DNA of 63,301 bases, the filler included, from Reclinomonas americana ATCC 50394 (Eukaryota): the NCBI GenBank assembly GCA_048213135.1. It is 44 parts of 44 records of this genome, joined end to end, with 100 filler letters (N's around TTAATTAATTAA, not from the genome) between each part and the next. Parts side by side here need not be neighbours in the genome. Positions count along the whole stretch, not along the records: positions 49,074 to 50,408 come from AFZH01025802.1; 43 more parts are not named here. One strand, given 5' to 3'. Position 1 is the stretch's first letter. Every line of letters starts with the position of its first letter. Below are positions 49,128-50,308 of this stretch, in pieces. Under the pieces are notes generated by a model. It did no database searches, had not been told where the DNA came from, and saw only the letters and a list, made by a program, of their open reading frames with translations. A program made the position numbers and the translations under genes.

Positions 49128-50308
49128 GGCAATGGTAGCGTGGGCAAGACGTCGCTCATCCGCAAGTACGCAAAGGGCCAGTTCTCCGACGAGTACAAGA
49201 AGACATATCCTTCTTCTCTTTGCTGATGATGTCGACAGTTTGTTCATCGCATCGTGTGTTCCTTGACTCTCTCTCTCTCTCTTCTTCCCCGTGTCGCACT
49301 ATCGGAGTCGACTTTCTGGAGAAGAACATTCACATTGAGGAGACCATGGAGACCATCTCGCTGCATCTGTGGGACACAGCCGGGCAGGATGAGTTCGAGA
49401 CGCTGACACGACGCTACTACGCTGGTGAGGAGATGTGGGTGCACACGCACGCACGTGTGCGTGCACGCTTGTGCTGAAGCATCCTTTCTCTCTTGTGTGC
49501 TCTTCTGTGTTGCAGCTGCGGCGGCTGCTGTCATTGCCTTCTCGTCGACCGATCGTGCCTCGTTCGAGGCGGTGGAGCGATGGAAGCAAAAGGTGGTGGA
49601 GGAGTGCGGCTCTGGCATCTCCATGGTGCTCGTGCAGAACAAGATTGATGTGCTCGATGCTGCTGTGGTCACCAAGTGCGTCATCGCATTGTTTTCTGGC
49701 ATATTGTCGCTCTTATATCTCACAACTCTGCGCGACCGCAGGGAGGAGGTGGAACGGCTGGCAGATCGCTTGAAACTCAAGCTTTATCGCACATCGGTGA
49801 AGAATGGCATCAACGTCAATCAAGGTTCAGTGTGCGAGGCAGTACGGAGGACAGTGCACGGTGTTTGTTTGCTCATGCGCTCGACTGCAGTGTTTGAGCA
49901 CCTGGTGGAGCAGTACTTCAAGCGCGGTGGAGTGGCGTCGGAGAGCGCTATTGAGCCTGTGCAGAATCTTGGTGCGTTGCGGCATTGCTGTTACTGTAGT
50001 AGGTGTCGCGCTGACTGTCAAGTGACGACGCAGCGGCATTGCCGGCAAGAAGTGGCGGATCATCTTCGCGTGCTGGAGTGGATACATCAATAGGGACCAG
50101 CATGCCTGTACGTGGCGGTGAAAGCACGCAAGCATTTGCAGCACCGGCCGCACAGGCGACCAATGGAGGTGCGGCGTCAGAAGCGCCAGTGGTCGGCCGC
50201 TCGTCCAAGCCAGTAACCAATGCTCTCAACCTGTCCGATGCTGGCGACGAGGCCACAGCGCCCAGCAAGAAACGAGCAAAGAAGAAGGGTTTCTGCTCGC
50301 TGCTTTAA
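49128..50308 (+). CDS. RAB23: Rab23 GTPase (ciliary Rab), 5'-partial, six visible exons
   Basis: GNGSVGKTSLIRKYAKGQFSDEYKKT|IGVDFLEK..LWDTAGQDEF..FSSTDRASFEAV..VQNKID..YRTSVK; C-terminal CSLL* prenylation motif. Confidence 0.93.
49205..49299 (+). other. U12-type (minor spliceosome) AT-AC intron, 95 nt
   Basis: 5' ATATCCTT, branch point TTCCTTGAC at 49259-49267, 3' CAC; removal joins AAG AC|T ATC GGA to restore YKKTIGVDF. Confidence 0.93.

Follow-up and report, generated by a model that had tools for sequence, protein, structure and literature searches.

A U12-type AT-AC intron in RAB23 and components of a minor spliceosome in the genome assembly of Reclinomonas americana

Does the RAB23 gene in the genome assembly of the jakobid Reclinomonas americana ATCC 50394 (GCA_048213135.1) carry an intron of the minor, U12-dependent class, and does the organism keep the machinery to remove it? 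The question is raised by 95 nucleotides (nt) at positions 49205-49299 of the stretch analysed here (the window), which consists of 63,301 nucleotides of short contigs chained through N-linkers. A sequence-only reading had described this insert as a U12-type AT-AC intron with a distant branch point and a polypyrimidine tract. We conclude that the insert is a real, canonical U12-type AT-AC intron. It is very probably an ordinary one, removed by a minor spliceosome which this jakobid still keeps. The main result concerns the whole genome: a jakobid that has a minor spliceosome and whose minor introns are almost all AT-AC, the RAB23 intron being otherwise ordinary among them.

The six-exon model of RAB23 comprises 266 codons in an intact frame, the first coding exon lying off the contig, and ends in CSLL-stop, an ending which we take to be of the prenylation type. 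The gene was assigned by alignment: of its eight protein matches, at 61-67%, three are named Rab-23 and one 'small rab-related GTPase', the others being unnamed or unlabelled. The switch I region of the product reads YKKTIGVDFLEK, as in RAB23 homologs. An 858-nt contig that is 90-95% alike (the spliced contig) skips all four GT-AG introns of the gene (91, 66, 66 and net 62 nt). The features of the locus are as follows.

49074..50408, plus strand: contig G000:C10335, bearing RAB23 without its first coding exon
49128..49204, plus strand: RAB23 exon from the P-loop to YKK, ending in phase 2 within the switch-I Thr codon; the terminal 15 nt are seen in the spliced contig
49205..49299, plus strand: U12-type AT-AC intron, 95 nt, phase 2
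49205..49212, plus strand: U12-type 5' splice site ATATCCTT; positions +5 to +8 are predicted to base-pair with the 5' terminus of the genome's own U11
49259..49267, plus strand: U12-type branch sequence TTCCTTGAC with the putative branch A at 49266
49267..49290, plus strand: pyrimidine run of 24 nt between branch and acceptor, lacking A and composed largely of a (CT)n repeat
49297..49299, plus strand: 3' splice site CAC, which holds the first AC downstream of the branch motif
49300..49424, plus strand: RAB23 exon, IGVDFLEK to WDTAGQ
49425..49515, plus strand: major-type GT-AG intron of 91 nt that includes a 13-nt pyrimidine run; skipped in the spliced contig
49516..49675, plus strand: RAB23 exon, supported by protein matches and the spliced contig
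49676..49741, plus strand: GT-AG major-type intron, 66 nt, skipped in the spliced contig
49742..49824, plus strand: RAB23 exon, supported by the spliced contig
49825..49890, plus strand: GT-AG major-type intron, 66 nt, skipped in the spliced contig
49891..49971, plus strand: RAB23 exon, supported by the spliced contig
49972..50033, plus strand: GT-AG major-type intron, 62 nt; the spliced contig skips 90 with 28 letters between
50034..50308, plus strand: last RAB23 exon with the CSLL-stop end, supported by the spliced contig

The donor ATATCCTT, the branch TTCCTTGAC, the CAC end and a putative branch A 33 nt before the end of the intron, all claimed beforehand, are read directly from the sequence. 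The claim that removal of the 95 nt restores switch I also holds, since all three frames are broken in the unspliced sequence and YKKTIGVDFLEK appears once it is spliced; this region is without an insertion in all five RAB23-like homologs that were aligned (eight were returned). Because AC ends both the exon and the intron, three placements of the boundaries (AC..GC, CA..CA and AT..AC) yield the identical joined sequence, and only AT..AC is a known pair. No frame-restoring GT-AG, GC-AG or other AT-AC pair was listed in 49140-49345 by a weak filter that was anchored one base off frame. The spliced contig carries 15 nt identical to 49188-49202 directly before 49298, which is the joined form without exactly 95 nt. 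Motifs, frame and spliced contig thus agree on 49205-49299 as a U12-type AT-AC intron in RAB23. As for spliced junctions, which had been named as the check, one contig does join across the 95 nt, although it is a single record with 15 nt on the 5' side.

Taken alone, neither motif occurs in the window above chance: the donor motif has two matches against 0.68 expected (14 of 100 shuffles reach two) and the branch motif two against 4.9. The other ATATCCTT of the window, at 46800-46807, has no branch motif downstream and was taken as chance. An RNA fold drawing branch and acceptor together was rejected as unsupported (z = +0.38), and the intron has no notable fold. A DNA search of the genome gave no second RAB23 haplotype, and no sequencing run recorded as RNA was found to contain the RAB23 stretch. 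As to other lineages, none of the at least 116 metagenome loci listed was a Rab gene, and no literature report of a U12-type intron at this RAB23 position was found.

The intron is not alone in the genome. A strict pattern (RTATCCTT followed by TCCTTRAC) was matched 58 times with 20-50 nt between the motifs, against two matches of the reversed pattern used as a control, and 51 times with 51-80 nt, against none; the total is 109 versus 2. The sequence-only reading had named as counting against it a genome with no minor small nuclear RNAs (snRNAs) and no other such introns; these 109 pairs were found instead, together with U11 and U6atac. The strict matches occur at about one per megabase (109 in 108 Mb, two haplotypes included), mostly as near-identical pairs, as if two haplotypes had been assembled. 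AT starts 104 of them and GT five, and when collapsed by eye they correspond to about 63 introns, 60 with AT and three with GT, one of the latter being doubtful. A relaxed branch for GT donors gave 17 matches versus 9 in the control. Six of the 17 lie on bacterial contigs, four had already been counted, two are a pair in the CENATAC gene, one is a candidate on contig C178 and four are not intron-like. GT-AG minor introns therefore remain few, and the AT share is about 92% after two GT introns are added, or about 92-95% overall. Eleven further RTATCCTT words in sampled eukaryotic loci lack a strict branch, and only two of them are intron-like.

About 98 of the 109 strict branches, counted by eye, read TCCTTGAC and not TCCTTAAC; from this bias one would expect a U12 that has C where it pairs with this position. 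The lengths range from 71 to 119 nt in 44 distinct introns, and phase 0 occurs in one of the 21 introns read by eye. The host genes encode an ion channel, a kinase and an AMP-binding enzyme, judged from short exon pieces below the Pfam cut-offs. The ion-channel gene (L009, L010; G000:C20:136814 and 139999, with a pair on C433) has two minor introns, an AT-AC one and a GT-AG one. Going by the title of a paper in a reference list, voltage-gated channel genes of animals are reported to host minor introns. Minor introns also cluster, several contigs having two within 1-4 kilobases (kb), probably in one gene (L095/L097 on C457 and C523; C2082; C86). Most loci are present in the assembly in two diverged copies (C4/C6, C5/C7, C20/C433, C136/C174, C292/C300), whose introns differ clearly and whose exons differ little; these pairs reflect one of three things, high heterozygosity, a hybrid or two strains.

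Two minor snRNAs were identified. U11 is present in two copies (C5 and C8; 51.2 and 51.1 bits, Rfam cut-off 39), as is U6atac (C392 and C1225; 37.8 and 34.9 bits, cut-off 33), and the genes of both share an upstream word at -70/-72. In the presumed registers, U11 pairs with donor positions +5 to +8, and U6atac pairs at three of six donor positions, poorly because its donor-pairing box is of the CC type (CCGA). U6 is canonical in all three copies. We considered this U6atac box as a novel oddity and dropped the idea, since a box reading CCGA where AAGGA is usual has been published as the CC variant, known from Trichoplax, cnidarians, Acanthamoeba, Physarum, moss and oomycetes (Davila Lopez 2008, PMC2396436). 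Unlike the published CC variants, which have G or U before CCGA, the base at this place is A, and no discobid is listed in the accessible part of that paper. Apart from this A, the two U6atac loci (L001:1501-1632 and L002:1501-1630) have an insertion of 20-23 nt where the model has 3-6 nt, and the loop of their 3' hairpin is very short. Several candidates were rejected. A GTTGCG donor class served by this U6atac was discarded because only 5 of 202 raw GTTGCG words have a U12-type branch core within 120 nt. Two U12 candidates (L098/L099) fit the predicted pattern and have neither an Rfam match up to E 10 nor an Sm site, and none of the further U12 pattern matches was convincing (24 of 30 were examined, six on bacterial contigs being excluded). 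A complementarity search for U4atac gave 39 matches versus 49 in the control. When the upstream word was used to look for further snRNAs, it led to the two U11 genes and to 10 sites of no relevance.

Two of the five minor-specific protein families sought were found. CENATAC (PF14968) is above the cut-off on C136/C174, and a TXNL4B-like gene on C231/C280 matches TXNL4B with E 1e-15 versus 1e-4 for TXNL4A, a separate TXNL4A being present. The claim that the organism keeps parts of the minor spliceosome is therefore borne out by U11, U6atac, CENATAC, TXNL4B and about 63 strict-motif introns. CENATAC is described as promoting AT-AN introns (PMC8280824) and TXNL4B as minor-specific (PMC9887622), and an AT-AC-specific role has been reported for plant DROL1. 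The CENATAC gene itself holds a GT-AG U12-type intron in which the variant branch TTCCTAAAC is followed by about 35 nt of T-rich tail (L146, minus strand, near 1148; G000:C136:124634 and C174:49843). A minor intron inside a minor-spliceosome gene is possibly a feedback device. In the TXNL4B product (L294, L298) about 10 and about 12 residues are inserted at two places, one of these insertions being acidic, and the gene contains a long intron full of GA and CT repeats.

Is the distant branch, then, a property of the class? The spacing between the branch A and the first AC or AG that is 9 nt or further from it was measured in 61 loci (60 of the 109 rows and the RAB23 contig), which gave 63 matches and 44 distinct introns. 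It ranges from 9 to 33 nt with a median of 17.5, the RAB23 intron being the longest; 5 of the 44 introns fall at 11-13 nt, 23 at 14-20 nt and 15 above 20 nt, with three at 30 nt or more. Major-type introns in the same loci, a crude sample, have medians of 14.5 (n = 14) and 15 (n = 27). An AC lies 5-8 nt after the branch in 7 of the 44 introns, and in the channel and kinase genes, which are the best conserved, the frame needs a later AC. Two alleles of one intron (L008, L017) have spacers of 12 and 20 nt, and because of this difference of 8 nt the branch distance is taken to be loosely held. For comparison, an optimum of 11-13 nt and no distinct tract are given as typical, non-defining traits of U12-type introns (Turunen 2013, PMC3584512), 8-14 nt is typical for animals and plants with a search window of 8-38 nt (Sheth 2006, PMC1557818), and a published classifier allows up to 45 nt (bioRxiv 10.1101/2020.10.12.336362). 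The branch distances are thus longer and more spread than the published 11-13 or 8-14 nt, which supports the sequence-only reading in part; the 33 nt of RAB23, the extreme case, is still inside both windows. The tract fared worse as a feature of the class: the pyrimidine share of the 44 introns is 0.71 in the tail versus 0.68 from donor to branch (Wilcoxon p = 0.14, not significant), several tails have a share of only 0.33-0.5, and the RAB23 tract is a (CT)n repeat of a kind common in the genome (0.6-1.5 per kb). With its 33 nt and 24-nt run the RAB23 intron departs from the short distance and absent tract that are typical of U12-type introns without defining them. It belongs to the U12 class by its defining motifs and is an outlier in one secondary trait; its spacing looks like the repeat-driven extreme of a mildly relaxed distribution.

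The likeness to the transformed introns of Physarum polycephalum could not be upheld. In that organism the branch is a degenerate TTTGA located 9-12 nt from the 3' end, U12 has co-evolved, and a pyrimidine tract is never mentioned in the accessible text (Larue, Elias, Roy, bioRxiv 10.1101/2020.10.12.336362). More than 20,000 minor introns are reported there, with GT donors dominant (3021 vs 627) and with a classic branch in 20 of 3,648 introns with a perfect donor. The two organisms share a minor intron in a protist small GTPase gene and a CC-type U6atac; unlike Physarum, the genome studied here has a canonical branch, longer distances, AT donors and about one strict match per megabase. The 109 strict matches argue against a mass expansion of the Physarum type, although the strict pattern would miss any class with a degenerate branch.

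The introns closely resemble animal and plant U12-type AT-AC introns (PMC3584512, PMC1557818), with which they share the ATATCCTT donor, the TCCTTRAC branch, the AC end, rarity, the occurrence of several per gene and the scarcity of phase 0. They differ in the branch distance (33 nt in RAB23 and a class median of 17.5 versus the 11-13 nt optimum), in the preference for TTGAC over TTAAC and in the AT-AC share, which is 24-26% in human. A protist with AT-AC as the main subtype is also known, Blastocystis sp. subtype 1 (Larue and Roy 2023, PMC10639083), with 196 of 253 introns or 77%, the highest published share we have seen in the accessible literature. Blastocystis introns measure about 42 nt, with phase 0 over-represented, whereas those described here are longer, biased against phase 0 and higher in AT share, and they come from another supergroup.

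Several points weigh against an ordinary intron removed by a working minor spliceosome. For the spliced contig there is a single record, taken from a single run that is only guessed to be RNA, and being only 90-95% alike it stems from another allele or strain, whose own intron was not seen; its 5' side amounts to 15 unambiguous nt listed as a loose end and not as a joint. The acceptors other than that of RAB23 were assigned by rule, and the first-AC distances are lower bounds. The pyrimidine content of the tails shows a weak increase with distance (Spearman 0.34, p = 0.024), which would also fit a tract that aids distant sites. The minor snRNAs were found only in part, U11 and U6atac exceeding the Rfam cut-offs. 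U12 was found neither with the Rfam model nor by pattern searches of the genome, and U4atac neither with the model nor by complementarity, the filtered model searches having scored 42 of 1907 and 50 of 876 candidates, respectively. An exon-by-exon search, run without a positive control genome, yielded nothing for PDCD7, the ubiquitin-like 25K family or the 48K zinc finger; these negatives do not amount to absence. Finally, the assembly contains bacterial and plant contaminants, and the contig bearing the jakobid marker showed no minor intron, which makes the link to the lineage compositional and not physical.

Some of these points would suit a modified recognition of the 3' end, which the sequence-only reading had thought possible; in such a system pyrimidine tracts would let an altered U12 small nuclear ribonucleoprotein (snRNP), or a factor like U2AF, select acceptors far from the branch. 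Such a mechanism could account for a median distance of 17.5 nt with 15 of 44 introns above 20, for the tendency of long tails to be rich in pyrimidines (rho 0.34), for the long T-rich tail of the CENATAC intron and for a U12 that escapes the Rfam model alongside three undetected protein families. We consider it unlikely, since the tails as a whole are not significantly richer in pyrimidines, several being as low as 0.33-0.5, the branch and donor are canonical, unlike those of Physarum, and (CT)n repeats are common; moreover, 33 nt is inside the published search windows. The 24-nt run in RAB23 could be a U2AF site if the intron were a relic of the minor class which the major spliceosome now removes, making it a U2-type AT-AC intron, and the failure to find U12 and U4atac would agree with that. 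The RAB23 intron, however, has a perfect U12 donor with C at +5, whereas U2-type AT-AC introns have G there; both strict motifs persist in about 63 introns, for the most part in the two haplotypes alike, and this requires that a minor spliceosome selects for them; moreover, U11 and U6atac are intact. This relic status is hardly probable at all. That the 95 nt are a frameshifting insert in an assembly artefact or a pseudogene might be suspected from the small isolated contig and the lack of a second haplotype in the DNA search; given the spliced contig, the intact 266-codon frame and both strict motifs, the chance of this is negligible.

A different objection is that a second eukaryote, co-assembled with the jakobid, owns the minor introns and snRNAs, in which case nothing follows for Discoba. 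The assembly is indeed mixed, no direct physical link joins the marker contig to a minor intron, and an HSP90 on a minor-intron contig has no close named relative among the 120 matches listed (best 78%). Yet the minor introns and U11 are located on the largest non-bacterial contigs (C4 to C8, C15, C16, C20), and the minor-intron contigs form near-identical pairs, as does the marker (C292/C300). The marker is the 225-residue exon product of a GspE-like gene which is, by eye, identical to the Reclinomonas americana row in Supplementary Data 1 of PMC8134430; one of two query peptides occurs solely in that row within this one file. The 4-mer spectra agree as well, the correlation of the marker contig being 0.95 with the minor-intron loci, 0.93 with the U11/U6atac loci and 0.75 with the short RAB23 contig, compared with -0.04 for the large bacterial contigs C1/C2 and 0.67 for small GC-rich bacterial pieces, and the donor-word rates of the marker contig and the minor-intron loci agree. 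A second eukaryote as the owner is therefore very improbable; judged by the marker and by composition, the host of the minor introns is the jakobid.

The contaminants (L113-L115) comprise the multi-megabase bacterial contigs C1 and C2 and a land-plant cox1 fragment, C14726, which is 99% alike to flowering-plant proteins. Because this fragment is the only one of mitochondrial type, cox1 was abandoned as a lineage marker. In the window, 44500-44661 is the end of a very GC-rich, repeat-free contig, bacterial in look. One HSP90 exon match on C20 (L108/L110, G000:C20:44746-47276) is on the strand opposite to its neighbours, and TXNL4A (L293/L296) shows the same strand conflict across an N gap; both are likely mis-oriented scaffold pieces.

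On the preferred reading of an ordinary U12-type intron, U11 would pair with donor positions +5 to +8, and the undetected U12 would pair with UCCUUGAC, bulging the A at 49266. U6atac, as a CC variant, would then take over from U11 at the donor, and the 3' site would be the first AC at least about 9 nt beyond the branch. Behind the RAB23 branch an A-free (CT)n repeat may have grown and moved the first AC to 33 nt, which the machinery would tolerate; the repeat is thus probably not a recognition signal. The almost pure AT-AC set is most likely due to an unequal ease of conversion into major introns, to which GT-AG minor introns are prone and AT-AC minor introns are not. Converted clusters numbered 74 for GT-AG versus 5 for AT-AC, and U2-type AT-AC introns are reported to have G at +5 (Lin 2010). 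An AT-rich remnant can thus be explained by conversion bias without new machinery.

Minor introns have been stated to be absent from Discoba, with reference to trypanosomatids (Larue and Roy 2023, PMC10639083), and complete loss of minor splicing was inferred for Discoba and Metamonada (Vosseberg 2023). Diplonema lacks minor introns. The Andalucia genome paper reports only GT-AG among 134 introns, and neither its main text nor that of the RABL2 paper mentions U12 or AT-AC. The accessible parts of PMC2846911, PMC4736243, PMC10638273 and bioRxiv 10.1101/2021.09.28.462139 contain no jakobid data. No report of minor splicing in jakobids, Discoba, Andalucia or Reclinomonas was found in a search that left subscription papers and data tables outside, and it seems fairly probable that minor splicing in a jakobid has so far gone unpublished. 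As a tentative and more far-reaching proposal, which we put forward as possible and do not favour outright, this jakobid would be the first member of Discoba with the ancestral minor spliceosome, having shed nearly all GT-AG minor introns, kept CENATAC and TXNL4B and lost the upper limit of the branch distance, so that the first AC beyond about 9 nt is used by means of a U12 snRNP too divergent for the Rfam model.

With U11, U6atac, two minor-specific proteins and about 63 minor introns present in a jakobid, a single supergroup-wide absence becomes several later losses. The minor spliceosome is thereby dated to a time before Discoba split, a point of weight if the root of the eukaryotes is near there, as has been proposed. 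A set with more than 90% AT-AC introns, compared with 77% in Blastocystis, is a natural test of the draining of GT-AG minor introns by conversion, and likewise of the AT-AC-specific roles reported for CENATAC and plant DROL1.
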